Assembly: GCA_003647275.1 (NCBI GenBank)
Contig: QMMN01000002.1
Location: 21,726-85,725, forward strand
DNA length: 64,000 nucleotides
Reading direction: 5' to 3'
DNA from: Deltaproteobacteria bacterium
GTDB taxonomy: Bacteria; Desulfobacterota; Desulfobacteria; Desulfobacterales; C00003060
Made by a program: the position numbers and the translations under genes. Under the pieces are notes generated by a model. That model worked only from the letters and a program-made list of their open reading frames with translations. It did not search any database and was not told the DNA's origin. Below are positions 1 through 26,118 of this stretch, in pieces. The stretch's first letter is position 1. The number at the start of each line of letters is the position of its first letter.

Positions 1-597
1 TTGCACAAAGAAGCGATCAAAAGCATGCCTGAATACCATGTCCCCTATTTTAGATTAGGCGAAAGTTTATTCAGGCATGGTAAGACAGAGGCCATTTACT
101 ACCTGGATCATGCCAATAGGTTGTGTGCGGCTTCTCTTCGAACTAAACTCCTCTTGGGCCTGGCATTTTTGAACAGGGATAAGCAAGCAGCTTACCGTTA
201 TTTCAAAGATGCCCTGGAAGTGTCTCCCATGTATGCCCCGGCCTGGGACGCGCTTGGGAGAATGCAGGAAGAATCTGGAGATTACGGAAAAGCCATCGAG
301 TTCTTTAATCTTGCGTTAAAGGCCAATCCCTTTTATGGGTTGGCATCGCTGGGTTTAGGCCGGGCCTATTTGGCGATGGGAAAATTGAACGAGGCCCTTA
401 AAGCCTTACACATAGCAGATGATATCTTACCCAACCATGTGGAATCGAGATTACAACTGACAAAACTCTTTTTGAAAATTGAAAAGTTTGAAGAGGCAGT
501 ATGTCAATGTAAAAGAATACTCGGAGAAGATCCCCAAAACAATGCTGCACAAAAACTTCTTGCTGAAATTAGCGATCGATATGTGGCAAGCGTATAA
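1..597 (+). CDS. TPR-repeat protein, C-terminal part (ORF open at the 5' window edge)
   Basis: The frame is open from base 1 to the stop at 595-597. The translation is a run of TPR-like units (AWDALGRMQEESGDYGKAIEFFNLALKANP; GLASLGLGRAYLAMGKLNEALKAL; LQLTKLFLKIEKFEEAVCQCKRILGEDP). It may be the tail of another GT-TPR protein like those downstream. Confidence 0.7.
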   Translation: MHKEAIKSMPEYHVPYFRLGESLFRHGKTEAIYYLDHANRLCAASLRTKLLLGLAFLNRDKQAAYRYFKDALEVSPMYAPAWDALGRMQEESGDYGKAIEFFNLALKANPFYGLASLGLGRAYLAMGKLNEALKALHIADDILPNHVESRLQLTKLFLKIEKFEEAVCQCKRILGEDPQNNAAQKLLAEISDRYVASV

Positions 598-756
598 AAT
601 TCTTCTCAAGAGGCTCCAACATAGAAGAAAACACAAATAAGTGGTGGAACGGACGGCGGAGAGCCTTTTGCTAAGGGCTATCAGATAAACTTAAATTTGG
701 TGCGAGCATAAGCGATCCTCGATTTTTCCTATCAACCATAATAATTTTGAAACCAC

Positions 757-1641
757 GTGGGAGACATTATGAAGACGGTTCTTAAAGCCGAAGTCATAGA
801 TGGTATTCGGACTTTGTCGGTCGATAGCCAACACCCCATTGATAAGGCAATTCCAGAGATAAACCATGTGGATGCTTTTTTGGCCAGCCAGATGCCTCAA
901 GAACTGAAAGAGCAGATTCTTCAGATACCCAGTGAACTTAACATATATCTTTCGGCAATATTTGAGGTCATGCTATACACCAAAAAAAGTTTTGCTGAAT
1001 TGATCGACCTCGTAAAAGTTGAGGTCCCAGTGGAAAGGGATTGGAATTCTGTTCATCCAGACCCGGATGATCAAGAGTCCCTTGATGATTTTTACAAAAA
1101 GACTGAGGCATTTATCTACGATGGCATGGCCAATCATACCTCTCCCCCTACAATGGCTACCTTAGGAGAAGTAGTGCGGATATGCCTCCACTTTGGATTG
1201 AAAGAAATGCTGGACTGGGGGGCCGGAGTGGGGACCCTGACAATTCTTTTGAACAAATACGGGATACAAACACATCATGTAGACTTGCCTGGCAAGACCC
1301 TTGAATTTGCACGATGGCGATATCGTCTTCGTGCCATGGATGTTAACGTTATCCCTTTGCCTCACCTCTTTACAACAGAAAGTGTGGATGGCATTGTCTG
1401 CCTTGAAGTGGTGGAACATGTAAAAGAGCCTGTTGAAATGCTCAAAAAGTTACATCGTATTATAAGGCCTGGAGGCATCCTGATATGTTCTGAGTCGTGC
1501 GCTCAACTTGAATATTCATCGCATTTGAAAACAAATGCTTCATTTTCCGGAGAGGCTTTCATTGAGAAAATGAATCAGATTGGTTTCCAACTGATACCGG
1601 AGTTTTCCCGGTTTTACCCCAAGACATATCAGAGAATCTAA
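757..1641 (+). CDS. Class I SAM-dependent methyltransferase
   Basis: 294-aa ORF with SAM-binding motif I (LDWGAGVGTLT), an acidic loop (HHVDL) and downstream motifs (VCLEVVEHVKEP, LHRIIRPGGILI). The start is either GTG 757 or ATG 769. Confidence 0.8.
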   Translation: MGDIMKTVLKAEVIDGIRTLSVDSQHPIDKAIPEINHVDAFLASQMPQELKEQILQIPSELNIYLSAIFEVMLYTKKSFAELIDLVKVEVPVERDWNSVHPDPDDQESLDDFYKKTEAFIYDGMANHTSPPTMATLGEVVRICLHFGLKEMLDWGAGVGTLTILLNKYGIQTHHVDLPGKTLEFARWRYRLRAMDVNVIPLPHLFTTESVDGIVCLEVVEHVKEPVEMLKKLHRIIRPGGILICSESCAQLEYSSHLKTNASFSGEAFIEKMNQIGFQLIPEFSRFYPKTYQRI

Positions 1642-24000: not shown

Positions 24001-24111
24001 TTTTTTTTGCCATGATGAGTGCCCCAAAAAGTTCACGATGGTCATTCAACGGACTTTTTCAAAGCTCTCAGATATCGCAAGACCAAATGATGTGATTTTG
24101 GAGGCTACACT

Positions 24112-26118
24112 GTGAAACAACCAACGGTTTCGCTTTGCATGATCGTTAAAGATGAAGAGGAGAGCCTGCCTCGTTGCCTGTCAAGTGTCAAGGACTATGT
24201 AGATGAAATTGTGGTCGTGGACACCGGTTCAACCGATAGAACGGTAGAGATTGCAAGAAGATTTGGGGCACAGATTTACCATCATCCATGGGAAGACAAC
24301 TTTAGCAAACACCGCAATCAGTCCATAAGTTATGCGACCGGCGACTGGTTTATGTATCTAGATGCGGATGAGGAGATCGTTGAAGGCACCGGCCCGCTTA
24401 TCAGAGAAGCCATCCAAAATCAGAAGGTTGATAGCATCACCTTCGAGTTTATAAGCCTTTATGCTGGTGGGAAAAAGAGCTTTCATACCCAGCAAAGGCT
24501 CTTCAGAAACGACAGGGGAATCCATTTTGAGGGCCGCATTCATAACCGGATTGTTGGGGTTAAGACAACTTGCTTGTATCCTATCAAGGTGCTTCACCAT
24601 GGCTACAATGTTCATCATGAAAAGGCAAAACTTAAGCATGAAAGAAGGATAAAGATTTTAAAACGAGAAATCGAGGACGATCCTCAAAATCCCATCCACC
24701 ACCACTATCTGGCTGCCTCGTATTTGTCCGTTCCTGACTATGAGCAAGCAGCCCAAGAAGCCCTGAGCGCCATAGATCTTGCTGACAAAAGAGGAGAGGC
24801 AGGGAGTTTCTTTTATGCCTGGACGCATTACATTGCAGCCGCTTCCCTTTATCATTTGGGACATCTTGAAAGGGCGCAAAAAGTCTGTCGGTTGGGGTTG
24901 GACCGTTTCCCTGATGATCCGGACTTGCATTTTGTATCCTGCCAGATCGCCTTTGATCAAAAGGATGGAGTGAATCTGGAAAAACATGCGGCCAGATATC
25001 TGGCCTTGCACGATGAGCTTACCTACAAACCCGAAAAAAGAGGGATGATTCACTGTGTCACTTTCGATCAGGCCTGGAGGATATGGTGGTTCATGGCAAT
25101 GAACGATGCCAGGGGGGGACGACAGCAAGATTATGAACGAAAACTGAACAGGGCCATGGAGACGGCCCCGAGAAGATCTGAAGTCTACCATACAACTGGG
25201 CGTTATTACATGGGAAGCGGAGACCTTAAGAAGGCGAGTACAGAACTGGACAGGGCCTTTGGAGAAGATCCATATAATATGGATATCATTTATTCCCAGA
25301 TTGAGCTTTTCATTCACCTGGGAGACGAACAGGGAGAAATCAATTGGTGGCAGGAGCTTTTAAAGCGTTTCCCGGAAAGCAGACTTAAAATGCTTCAGGA
25401 GGTCTGTAAGGCCTTTGATGAACAGCGCACTCCCGATGCCCGTAAACTTTTGAAGGCATTGCTGGCAAGGTGGCCCCAAGACAAAGACGCCCTTCGGCTG
25501 ATGGCTGAATATGTTAGGGAGAAAGAAGACCTTACAGACGAAGTTGCTTATTTAAGAAATTTACTACCTATGGCCAGGGATGAAAGGGACCTTATCATAC
25601 AAGTCGGCCTGGTTTTGCTAAGAAAAAATTTTCATGAAGAGGCCCGTGATTTTCTTGAAAAGGGGGTGGCATTAAAACCAGATGAACCGGCAGCTCACCT
25701 TGGTCTGGCCACAATCCATTGGCACCGGGGAAACGTGGAACTTTGCGTGGCCGAGTTAGACCAGGTTTTACGGTTGCTTGGCAAGCCGTGTAAAATGGAG
25801 ATTACAGTCGTCGAAGAATTGGGGGCGATCTGCGCTTTGATCGGAGAGCTGCTGCTGCCCAATGGAGATATTGATGCGGCCGTCATGGCTTATGAGATGG
25901 CCCTGGAGATGAATTGCCATCTGACTCATGTCTATCAGGGCTTGGGCCTTGCCCTTAAAGAGATTGGTCGATTGAAGGAATCATTGGATCATCTCCAGAC
26001 CGCCCTGAGGCTTTCGCCAAATACAAGCGAGGTCCTTGGGCAAATGGGAGATGTTTACCGTCTTATGGGAAACATGAAGGCGGCTGAGTTTTGCTATCAT
26101 AAGAGTCAGAGTATATAA
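24112..26118 (+). CDS. GT2 glycosyltransferase with long C-terminal TPR domain (paralogue 3, diverged)
   Basis: GTG start. VSLCMIVKDEEESLPRCLSSVKDYVDEIVVVDTGSTDRTVEIA, HHPWEDNFSKHRNQ, DWFMYLDADE. The TPR tail is about 450 aa. Confidence 0.85.
   Translation: MKQPTVSLCMIVKDEEESLPRCLSSVKDYVDEIVVVDTGSTDRTVEIARRFGAQIYHHPWEDNFSKHRNQSISYATGDWFMYLDADEEIVEGTGPLIREAIQNQKVDSITFEFISLYAGGKKSFHTQQRLFRNDRGIHFEGRIHNRIVGVKTTCLYPIKVLHHGYNVHHEKAKLKHERRIKILKREIEDDPQNPIHHHYLAASYLSVPDYEQAAQEALSAIDLADKRGEAGSFFYAWTHYIAAASLYHLGHLERAQKVCRLGLDRFPDDPDLHFVSCQIAFDQKDGVNLEKHAARYLALHDELTYKPEKRGMIHCVTFDQAWRIWWFMAMNDARGGRQQDYERKLNRAMETAPRRSEVYHTTGRYYMGSGDLKKASTELDRAFGEDPYNMDIIYSQIELFIHLGDEQGEINWWQELLKRFPESRLKMLQEVCKAFDEQRTPDARKLLKALLARWPQDKDALRLMAEYVREKEDLTDEVAYLRNLLPMARDERDLIIQVGLVLLRKNFHEEARDFLEKGVALKPDEPAAHLGLATIHWHRGNVELCVAELDQVLRLLGKPCKMEITVVEELGAICALIGELLLPNGDIDAAVMAYEMALEMNCHLTHVYQGLGLALKEIGRLKESLDHLQTALRLSPNTSEVLGQMGDVYRLMGNMKAAEFCYHKSQSI

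Follow-up and report, generated by a model that had tools for sequence, protein, structure and literature searches.

What does a bacterium do with more than a dozen glycosyltransferase (GT) domains placed directly in front of its flagellin gene? This question is raised by a 64,000-nucleotide stretch of contig QMMN01000002.1 (hereafter, the window), from assembly GCA_003647275.1 of a Deltaproteobacteria bacterium, in which sugar-handling enzymes fill positions 1–26118 and the flagellin gene fliC comes next. A preliminary description of the window had seen in these genes a flagellin glycosylation island. We think that this is very likely correct, i.e., that an island of at least 42 kb, placed directly upstream of fliC-fliD-fliS-flaG and in the same orientation, glycosylates flagellin. 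The proposal is supported by the homology of three enzymes to the flagellin glycosyltransferase GmaR, the fold of a Maf protein, the soluble nature of the encoded proteins, a sigma-28 promoter, sigma-54-like promoters and synteny with related loci.

Content and extent of the island

The layout of open reading frames (ORFs) was taken from a six-frame list and domains were assigned by Pfam scans, with additional profiles from NCBIfam. Thirteen long ORFs fill positions 1–26118, twelve on the forward strand and one (4761–7031) on the reverse strand, with inter-ORF gaps of 32–309 nt. As had been described, every ORF up to fliC encodes a carbohydrate-modifying or tetratricopeptide repeat (TPR) protein. 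The Pfam models back the earlier GT assignments and return the same tally of 13 domains: two CgeB-like (Glyco_trans_1_2), four GT4, five GT2, one GT9 and one Maf (MptE-like/DUF115). The non-GT parts listed in that description were all recovered as well, namely Methyltransf_11, Sulfotransfer_3, the deacetylase-like DUF2334, NTP_transferase and a B12-binding radical S-adenosylmethionine (SAM) enzyme. TPR regions are present on six of the proteins.

The size given initially, 26 kb with a start at base 1, is an underestimate, since the island continues to the left on the source contig. A protein identical to the GT4 protein encoded at 3511–4728 is present on a 129,679-bp ENA contig and in a second assembly from another run, and window base 1 corresponds to position 21,681 of the ENA contig. 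From that base, the island extends at least 15,975 nt leftwards, so that the total comes to no less than 42.1 kb and about 19 GT domains, with the left end still open. Positions 1–26118 are the right-hand, larger part of this island, and their left edge is that of the window only. The GC content is even along the window, so there is no sign of recent import.

On the right-hand side, 385 nt separate the last GT gene from fliC, which, in agreement with the preliminary description, is the single flagellin gene within the 64-kb window. Downstream of fliS follow flaG, response regulators, an HD-GYP protein, a PilZ protein and a full che operon, and then two sigma-54 activators, flgC, fliE-fliK and flgD, so that the island is embedded in a flagellar supercluster.

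Proposed mechanism

None of the island ORFs contains a hydrophobic stretch resembling a membrane span, and no Wzx, Wzy, ABC, OPX or initiating-transferase domain is found by Pfam in 27 genes (13 in the window and 14 upstream). As all the enzymes are soluble and without membrane segments, flagellin would be glycosylated in the cytoplasm before its export. Such a cytoplasmic location of flagellin glycosylation is established in other systems, and TPR-mediated binding of flagellin is documented for FlmG and Maf-1.

In the mechanism that we propose, the soluble enzymes would modify newly made flagellin in the cytoplasm, ahead of flagellar type III export, and no lipid carrier, flippase or oligosaccharyltransferase would be needed. 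The GmaR-like enzymes would hold flagellin by their TPR regions and transfer a first sugar onto Ser/Thr residues of its central domain, while Maf would supply a second priming activity. These primers might then be extended by the GT4, chondroitin-synthase-like GT2, long-form GT9 and CgeB-like domains, many of which reside in TPR-bearing polypeptides of 1000–1400 aa. Decoration of the sugars would be the task of methyltransferases and sulfotransferases, together with the deacetylase-like DUF2334 domains and the B12 radical-SAM enzymes, and the nucleotidyltransferase would activate one donor. Expression would follow the flagellar hierarchy through the sigma-54-like promoters of the island and the sigma-28 promoter ahead of fliC. 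The many extending-type domains, together with the tailoring enzymes, suggest that the products are oligosaccharides and not just single sugars. One long hetero-oligosaccharide and a set of short glycans spread over several sites are equally compatible with the gene content.

GmaR-like enzymes next to flagellin

Three paralogous genes, at 14379–16058, 22255–24000 and 24112–26118 on the forward strand, encode proteins in which Pfam places a TPR region directly C-terminal to a GT2 domain (3/3), and the last of them lies directly upstream of fliC. Designed TPR proteins aside, their nearest solved relative is the catalytic domain of Listeria GmaR (22ao_A), with E values of 3.5e-35, 3.9e-35 and 1.5e-32, respectively, in the PDB search. 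The SunS/ThuS peptide glycosyltransferases rank behind it, with E about 1e-25 (7e-26 for SunS with the first paralogue), and the best NCBIfam match is the SunS family, below its cut-off. By these similarities, the three proteins are homologues of GmaR. They share 46–58% identity in the GT domain (58% between the first and the second), and DNA repeats of 73–75% identity are still detectable among the three genes, the second one carrying repeat families D1 and D2. The first paralogue displays the motifs VVDTGSTD and DADE; DXD-type motifs occur in all five GT2 domains of the window (DADE in three, DSDD and NTDD in the others) and the nucleotide-binding motifs are kept. The first 125 nt of the ORF at 22255–24000 overlap the preceding one, which makes a start further downstream probable for this gene.

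GmaR is the O-linked N-acetylglucosamine (GlcNAc) transferase of Listeria flagellin, in which a GT domain is followed by a TPR domain that was proposed to recognise flagellin, and it is bifunctional, acting as a GT and as an antirepressor (PMC9638930). For the three window proteins, the PDB searches gave no match to the linker/antirepressor part of GmaR beyond the GT domain and generic TPRs, and no MogR-type repressor gene was noticed. The antirepressor domain, which binds MogR, is specific to Listeria, and the GT function does not depend on it. The window enzymes are like GmaR in having an N-terminal GT2 domain followed by TPRs and in being encoded within a flagellar cluster; in contrast, GmaR is a single-copy enzyme that adds one GlcNAc, whereas here three paralogues stand among many extending GTs.

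Caulobacter FlmG had been cited as a precedent for these TPR-bearing enzymes. The tethering logic holds as an analogy, as in both cases a TPR region might bind flagellin and tether a cytoplasmic GT to it, but the domain order and the GT fold differ. FlmG is a pseudaminyl transferase with an N-terminal TPR region and a C-terminal GT-B domain, while the enzymes beside fliC begin with a GT-A (GT2) domain and end with the TPR region. FlmG is an analogue and they are not members of its type, GmaR being the true homologue.

The Maf protein

The second candidate priming enzyme is a Maf protein of 756 aa (MAF_flag10/DUF115; 4761–7031, reverse strand), which is recorded at NCBI as the hypothetical protein DRH17_00935. 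It matches PF01973 with 113.4 bits against a cut-off of 34.6 and the NCBIfam PseD domain with E 3e-24, while the match to Maf_flag10_N (20.8 bits) is below the cut-off of 23.5 and is faint in close relatives too. An AlphaFold2 model derived from nine clade members (pLDDT, the predicted local confidence, of 86.5) was searched with Foldseek; the sole PDB match with E ≤1e-3 was Magnetospirillum Maf, 5MU5 (E 5.3e-17, 709 columns), and there were weak echoes of sialyltransferase folds. The predicted structure confirms the Maf family and a three-domain fold as in 5MU5. The last 280 residues are all-helical in the model, and this C-terminal domain recalls the TPR domain through which Shewanella Maf-1 binds flagellin. 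In an exhaustive HMMER search the Maf family comprised 7212 representatives, only about eight of them close (E <1e-80), so the protein belongs to a rare clade, which was not found in GTDB representative genomes.

With the known Mafs of Campylobacter, Helicobacter, Aeromonas, Magnetospirillum and Shewanella, the window protein has in common the PF01973 core and the flagellar location, at 17–30% identity to other Mafs. It differs from them in having no pse/leg/neu pathway alongside and no recognised GlfM-like neighbour; the constant partner of its clade in most related loci is instead a long-form GT9 protein. Known Maf systems transfer a nonulosonic acid, and some of the known Maf-bearing bacteria encode the nonulosonic-acid pathway elsewhere in the genome. 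The preliminary description had reported no intact nonulosonic-acid biosynthesis genes in the window. This holds, with no NeuB/PseI, DegT, Polysacc_synt_2, CTP_transf_3 or Epimerase_2 domain in the scanned ORFs of the 64 kb, and it extends to the 16 kb upstream and to the related loci. An epimerase gene in one related locus (L003, see below), the only one encountered, was considered as a NeuC-type candidate and ruled out, since its product is of WecB type (306 bits against a cut-off of 210). Either the nonulosonic-acid pathway lies elsewhere in the genome, or this Maf clade uses another donor.

Proposed glycan extension by multidomain glycosyltransferases

The remaining GT domains of the window are distributed over five genes, all on the forward strand. 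The first encodes a CgeB-like GT (1721–3472; DUF3880 and Glyco_trans_1_2, with Pfam E values of 1e-29 and 2e-8), and the second is the GT4 gene at 3511–4728 (Glycos_transf_1 1e-27, Glyco_transf_4 7e-20), whose EX7E motif is intact (EPFGLVVIE). A protein of 1416 aa (7341–11591) joins a long-form GT9 (3e-24), a GT2 (4e-33), a GT4 (8e-31) and TPRs in one chain. The gene at 16133–19108 encodes a fusion of a GT4 (Glycos_transf_1 2e-34), a CgeB-like GT (Glyco_trans_1_2 2e-40) and a sulfotransferase (Sulfotransfer_3 8e-22), and the one at 19173–22379 encodes, according to Pfam, a DUF2334 (deacetylase-like) domain fused to GT4, GT2 and TPR, with the EX7E motif present. All four GT4 domains retain the second Glu of EX7E; at the first position of the motif, two of them have Glu and two have Asp.

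The PDB matches of the 1416-aa protein are 3tov/WaaF for the GT9 part, chondroitin synthase (1e-28) for the GT2 and BshA-like enzymes for the GT4, and GmaR reaches only 1e-8 with this GT2 domain. For the GT2 domain of the 19173–22379 product the match is chondroitin synthase again (5e-20), with no GmaR match at the threshold used. We infer from these alignments two classes of GT2: a protein-priming one in the GT2-TPR enzymes and a glycan-extending one inside the megaproteins.

The first 570 residues of the 1416-aa protein constitute the long-form GT9, which passes PF01075 with 86.2 bits against 22. In its AlphaFold2 model (pLDDT 86.7) an N-terminal extension and a helical tail of about 170 aa go beyond the GT9 fold, and the best Foldseek match is 3tov (E 3e-17, template-modelling (TM) score 0.82–0.84), with WaaF and WaaC next. 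Its homologues form a separate clade of about 22 proteins (556–581 aa, 37–60% identity) that recurs in related islands; the next relatives are ordinary lipopolysaccharide (LPS) heptosyltransferases, at 28% identity. A C-x2-C-x4-C-x6-C cluster at the end of the C-lobe (residues 357–372 of the translation of window positions 7431–9080) is nearly invariant in the clade and is probably a structural metal site of this GT9 subfamily.

The long GT9 was also considered as an enzyme of the BAHT/TibC type, by way of its iron-finger-like Cys cluster. It shares with TibC/AAH (BAHT) the heptosyltransferase-like GT-B fold and a four-Cys cluster near the end of the C-lobe. This assignment was rejected, as ordinary GT9 proteins of 345 aa invariably have this cluster too, a profile search misses TibC, and in the structural comparison TibC ranks only 22nd (E 1e-5, TM 0.53), against E 3e-17 to 7e-12 and TM 0.75–0.84 for 3tov, WaaF and WaaC. 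As for its gene arrangement, the long GT9 is fused to GT2-GT4-TPR in the window and is a separate gene in three related loci (L003, L011 and L012), while another (L006) has a GT9-GT4 fusion as well as an unfused GT9 gene. These varied arrangements indicate that domains were fused or split repeatedly within the island family.

Some further similarities concern the CgeB-like protein at 1721–3472. Its residues 58–157 resemble the N-domain of Maf, with E 7e-4 in BLASTP and a sub-threshold match to Maf_flag10_N (E 0.005). Maf and CgeB-like domains are fused in a distant Maf homologue (P0019, 925 aa), and a PDB sequence search with the CgeB-like protein gave no match. The alignment hints that the Maf-N-like segment might be a shared flagellin-docking module.

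Candidate enzymes for tailoring and donor supply

Besides the fused sulfotransferase and DUF2334 domains, the window contains separate forward-strand genes for enzymes that may modify or activate the sugars. A SAM-dependent methyltransferase is encoded at 757–1641 (Methyltransf_11 1e-14; 290 aa as called on the contig). The B12-binding radical-SAM enzyme (12827–14128, Pfam) has HpnJ, BchE and PhpK as NCBIfam matches, all under cut-off, and homologues in three related loci (L003, L011 and L013); judged by its domains, it would probably carry out a C-methylation or another radical tailoring step. The sugar-1-phosphate nucleotidylyltransferase (11837–12574, NTP_transferase 4e-42) has mannose-1-phosphate guanylyltransferase, MurU and HddC as best NCBIfam matches, again all under cut-off, and by these matches it is classed as a sugar-1-phosphate enzyme, not a CMP-nonulosonate synthetase. 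Activation of heptose by this enzyme was considered and rejected, with 99 bits against an HddC cut-off of 300 and no other heptose-pathway genes. As regards the supply of ADP- or GDP-heptose (gmhA, hldE/hddA, gmhB), the island has no genes for a SIS isomerase, a kinase or a phosphatase.

Presumed acceptors and promoters

The flagellin FliC (26504–27646, forward strand; Flagellin_N and Flagellin_C) is the presumed glycan acceptor, and about 27% of the 160 residues of its central part are Ser/Thr. The ORF opens at 26444, and its Met21 codon at 26504, which follows the strong ribosome-binding site AAGGAGG by 8 nt, is most likely the start and gives a length of 380 aa as in the orthologues. A sigma-28 promoter (TAAA-N15-GCCGATAA) that matches the consensus at 12/12 positions precedes the gene at 26228–26254 on the forward strand. 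Within the island, a sigma-54-type promoter candidate (TGGCATAATTATTGCC; 7289–7304, forward strand, 14/16 match with GG and GC) lies ahead of the large GT operon, and a sigma-54-like site in the part to the left of the window (L008:9127) lies ahead of merR and the next GT block, both of them being intergenic. Similar motifs stand ahead of fliD (27755), the PilZ gene (35310), cheX (43299), a TPR gene (47098, the best sigma-54 motif of the window) and fliK (60252), and seven of the eight forward-strand matches are intergenic.

The filament cap protein FliD (27891–31427, forward strand; FliD_N and FliD_C) has 1178 aa with 25.6% Ser/Thr and is a possible second acceptor. With roughly double the length usual for FliD, it accommodates three modules of about 95 aa that resemble one another and begin near residues 385, 780 and 899. 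Their motif, GDxxxF[ST]G...GSY[ST][IV]xD...VQGLL, was found twice by pattern search and a third time by eye, and a BLASTP self-comparison reported none. FliD is also long in relatives with the island, with 1176 aa in L006, 1033 aa in L011 and 808 aa in L012.

Related loci

Related loci (L003–L006 and L011–L013, plus one JGI contig), all from other samples, were reached via homologues of Maf and of the long GT9. In L003 (GCA_016926135.1), whose Maf is 50% identical, there are flagellin, two GT2-TPR genes, a TPR-GT2-GT4 gene, a separate long GT9, the divergent Maf, a GT4, a flavoprotein with a small ORF, a B12 radical-SAM enzyme, the WecB-type epimerase and a methyltransferase. L006 (Maf 32% identical) contains the 1176-aa FliD, a 380-aa flagellin, two GT2-TPR genes, the GT9-GT4 fusion, Maf, methyltransferases and a long GT9. 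L011 has radical-SAM genes, TPR-GT2, GT2, a long GT9, GT4, a methyltransferase, GT9, GT2-TPR, flagellin and the 1033-aa FliD, and L012 has GT9, a long GT9, GT4, TPR, GT2-TPR, flagellin, the 808-aa FliD and FliS. L013 and the JGI contig show the same gene sets and end inside the GT2-TPR array. A search of the JGI metagenome contigs yielded a single fragment, 61% identical. L004/L005 carry Maf, a long GT9, TPR-GT41/GT9 giants and a 1785-aa sulfotransferase-methyltransferase protein.

A GT2-TPR gene is directly upstream of flagellin in four of these loci (L003, L006, L011 and L012), the flagellins of L003 and L006 being 78% and 63% identical to that of the window. FliD comes after flagellin in L006, L011 and L012, and L003 ends at flagellin; among the flagellin-bearing relatives, Maf is present in L003 and L006. 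The recurrent core is made of one or more GT2-TPR genes beside fliC, the long GT9, a GT4 and a B12 radical-SAM enzyme, often with Maf and a CgeB-like GT. Around this core, the content and the fusions of the island vary among loci, with 6–8 GT domains in the islands of L003 and L006, and the window version is the largest among the loci compared. A fixed position combined with a variable content is how flagellin glycosylation islands behave. According to the preliminary description, conservation in non-flagellated relatives, next to exopolysaccharide (EPS) or LPS export genes, would have pointed elsewhere; the related loci are flagellar and not loci of EPS or LPS export.

Weighing the alternatives

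Could the same genes serve the cell envelope instead, as a capsule, EPS or LPS O-antigen/core island that is next to flagellar genes by chance? GT4, GT2 and GT9 enzymes, sulfotransferases and nucleotidyltransferases are typical of such loci, several domains have chondroitin synthase, EpsE or heptosyltransferases as their best NCBIfam or PDB matches, and the GT-rich locus L004/L005 has no flagellin within 10 kb. Nevertheless, an envelope polysaccharide is very unlikely, as the 42 kb encode no initiating polyprenyl-phosphate transferase, flippase, polymerase, chain-length regulator, ABC or outer-membrane exporter, or ligase, and no island protein has a membrane segment. Moreover, the TPR fusions are typical of protein-directed GTs, GmaR homologues and Maf are present, and the place directly upstream of flagellin is kept in four other loci. 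Another explanation keeps the enzymes as protein GTs and gives them a main acceptor other than flagellin (FliD, other axial proteins or unrelated TPR clients), or takes some of the GT2-TPR proteins mainly as regulators. The 1178-aa FliD with its 25.6% Ser/Thr, long as well in island-bearing relatives, would suit the former, and three GT2-TPR paralogues with many TPR fusions could mean several acceptors; for the latter there is the precedent of the bifunctional GmaR. We regard this explanation as unlikely, since the sole characterised homologues (GmaR and Maf) act on flagellin, a GT2-TPR gene always directly abuts the flagellin gene, and the PDB searches show no similarity to the antirepressor of GmaR.

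It might also be argued that many of the GT domains are redundant or decayed, the product being one or a few short glycans. Recent duplication of the GT2-TPR genes is apparent from their 46–58% identity and their 73–75% DNA repeats, the B12 radical-SAM, sulfotransferase and DUF2334 modules are duplicated, Asp replaces the first EX7E Glu in two GT4 domains, and relatives get by with 6–8 GT domains. However, the ORFs are all long and uninterrupted by frameshifts or stops, conservation extends to the nucleotide-binding and DXD motifs, and multi-GT ORFs of 1000–1400 aa would not remain open without selection. We regard redundancy or decay as a very unlikely account of the island.

Several observations weigh against flagellin glycosylation by the island as we propose it. 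The organism is uncultured and known from a metagenome-assembled genome, and glycosylation of its flagellin is a prediction from the genes. Neither the 80 kb of contig examined (the 64-kb window plus 16 kb upstream) nor the related loci contain pse/leg/neu genes that would provide Maf with its canonical donor. The division into priming and elongating GT2 domains rests on best-hit similarity, and with Asp at the first EX7E position in two GT4 domains some domains could be weak or inactive. The number of sigma-54 motifs, 8 against 4.0 ± 2.0 in shuffled sequence, is only about twofold higher. Finally, L004/L005, a relative of the Maf clade, lacks flagellin within 10 kb.

Beyond the glycosylation of flagellin itself, a more elaborate picture can be drawn, in which long, methylated and sulfated hetero-glycans are built on flagellin, and perhaps on FliD, the roughly 19 GT domains act as a TPR-tethered cytoplasmic assembly line, and Maf uses a donor other than pseudaminic or legionaminic acid. 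The last point would follow from the pairing of the Maf clade with the long GT9 at loci without a nonulosonic-acid pathway. We offer this picture tentatively, since in its entirety it is rather unlikely to be right.

Comparison with known systems

Large flagellin glycosylation islands occur in Campylobacter jejuni (about 50 genes), Pseudomonas aeruginosa a-type strains, Aeromonas, Geobacillus and Clostridium, and they consist mostly of sugar-biosynthesis genes with few GTs or several Mafs. In the usual description of flagellin glycosylation, Maf, FlmG or enzymes of the GmaR/FgtA type attach a single sugar or a small number of them, for the most part nonulosonic acids. Like these islands, the one in the window is a strain-variable block beside flagellin that combines flagellin-specific GTs with tailoring enzymes, and its size of tens of kb is not unprecedented among them. 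The islands of Geobacillus and Clostridium are cited in PMC13317340.

In contrast to the known islands, the window island is dominated by about 19 GT domains, many of them fused, and it has Maf and GmaR-type enzymes together, sulfotransferases, three radical-SAM enzymes and no nonulosonic-acid pathway in cis. The kind of system and the families of its priming enzymes are already known, while the size and make-up are unusual: the dominance of GTs, the TPR-bearing megaproteins, the presence of Maf, GmaR-type enzymes and a dedicated long-GT9 clade in one island, and the sulfotransferases and radical-SAM enzymes without a nonulosonic-acid pathway in cis. In open-access full text, we found no paper linking flagellin glycosylation with Deltaproteobacteria or Desulfo- taxa, and no GT9 enzyme or sulfotransferase described as part of a flagellin island.

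In our opinion, the interest of the locus is in the combination of two priming classes with more than 12 extending GT domains and with sulfation, methylation and radical-SAM tailoring. If the proposal is true, the products would be among the most elaborate bacterial flagellin glycans, and the island would provide a clear case of complex glycan assembly on a cytoplasmic protein independently of a lipid carrier. A Maf clade without a visible nonulosonic-acid pathway poses a testable question on Maf donor specificity, and a donor other than pseudaminic or legionaminic acid, if true, would widen the view of what Maf enzymes do. The long-form GT9 clade, for its part, marks out a family of such islands in metagenomes.

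The left part of the island and other features of the locus

The leftmost ORF of the window (1–597, forward strand; TPR_19 2e-16) is cut by the window edge. It is the C-terminal part of a 595-aa protein with a weak GT-B match (Glyco_trans_1_4) and TPRs, whose whole gene is at 5300–7087 of L001, one of the two source-contig stretches (L001 and L008) that reach left of the window. Going further left through the upstream 16 kb, there are genes for a 253-aa GT2, a 945-aa GT2-GT2-DUF2334 protein, a 315-aa GT4-type protein and a MerR-family regulator (L008:9574–9924, about 6 kb left of window base 1), and then for a 509-aa NadB/TfrA-like flavoprotein with a 55-aa partner (L008:7284–8980), a sulfotransferase and a second B12 radical-SAM enzyme (L008:4955–6274), which is a paralogue of the 12827–14128 product. 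Next come a 281-aa GT2, a 327-aa protein with no family assigned, a methyltransferase, a third radical-SAM enzyme and, leftmost, another methyltransferase that runs off the stretch examined. The MerR gene stands mid-island and is preceded by the sigma-54-like motif at L008:9127; its product might regulate the GT operons locally. A NadB/TfrA-like flavoprotein (509 or 536 aa) with an adjoining ORF of 54–55 aa is found near a B12 radical-SAM gene both at L008:7284–8980 and at L003:13396–15171.

On the flagellar side, FliD is followed by the flagellin chaperone FliS (31518–31961, forward strand; PF02561 2e-40). An ORF of 203 aa (31810–32421) lies between fliS and flaG and overlaps the end of fliS; it shows a weak FlgN-like match (E 0.002, below threshold) and may be a chaperone-like protein or a mis-called start. 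Right after flaG, positions 32846–36022 encode a response regulator, a response-regulator-GAF-HD-GYP protein, which is a probable cyclic di-GMP phosphodiesterase, and a PilZ-domain protein. This segment looks like a cyclic di-GMP module inside the flagellar cluster. At 45430–51260, two response-regulator-type sigma-54 activators (465 and 468 aa) flank an 839-aa TPR protein.

Several intergenic sequences were also compared. A shared regulatory RNA in the three gaps of about 250 nt round the nucleotidyltransferase and radical-SAM genes was considered and dropped, as there was no convincing alignment and no Rfam family in the window. A GC-rich intergenic repeat of about 80–85 nt occurs at 14174–14251 (forward strand) and 35176–35255 (reverse strand) with 87.5% identity, one copy ahead of a GT2-TPR gene and the other ahead of the PilZ gene, beside its sigma-54-like motif, and there are partial copies at L008:6385–6428 and L008:9237–9263. 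In structure prediction, shuffled sequence folds as well as the 85-nt repeat (z −0.16). The repeat may be a mobile element of small size, an element like the repetitive extragenic palindromes, or a protein-binding site. A second intergenic direct repeat, of 67 nt and 85% identity, is located at 38389–38455, ahead of a helix-turn-helix-PAS gene, and at 47205–47271, just downstream of the 47098 sigma-54 motif and ahead of the 839-aa TPR protein.

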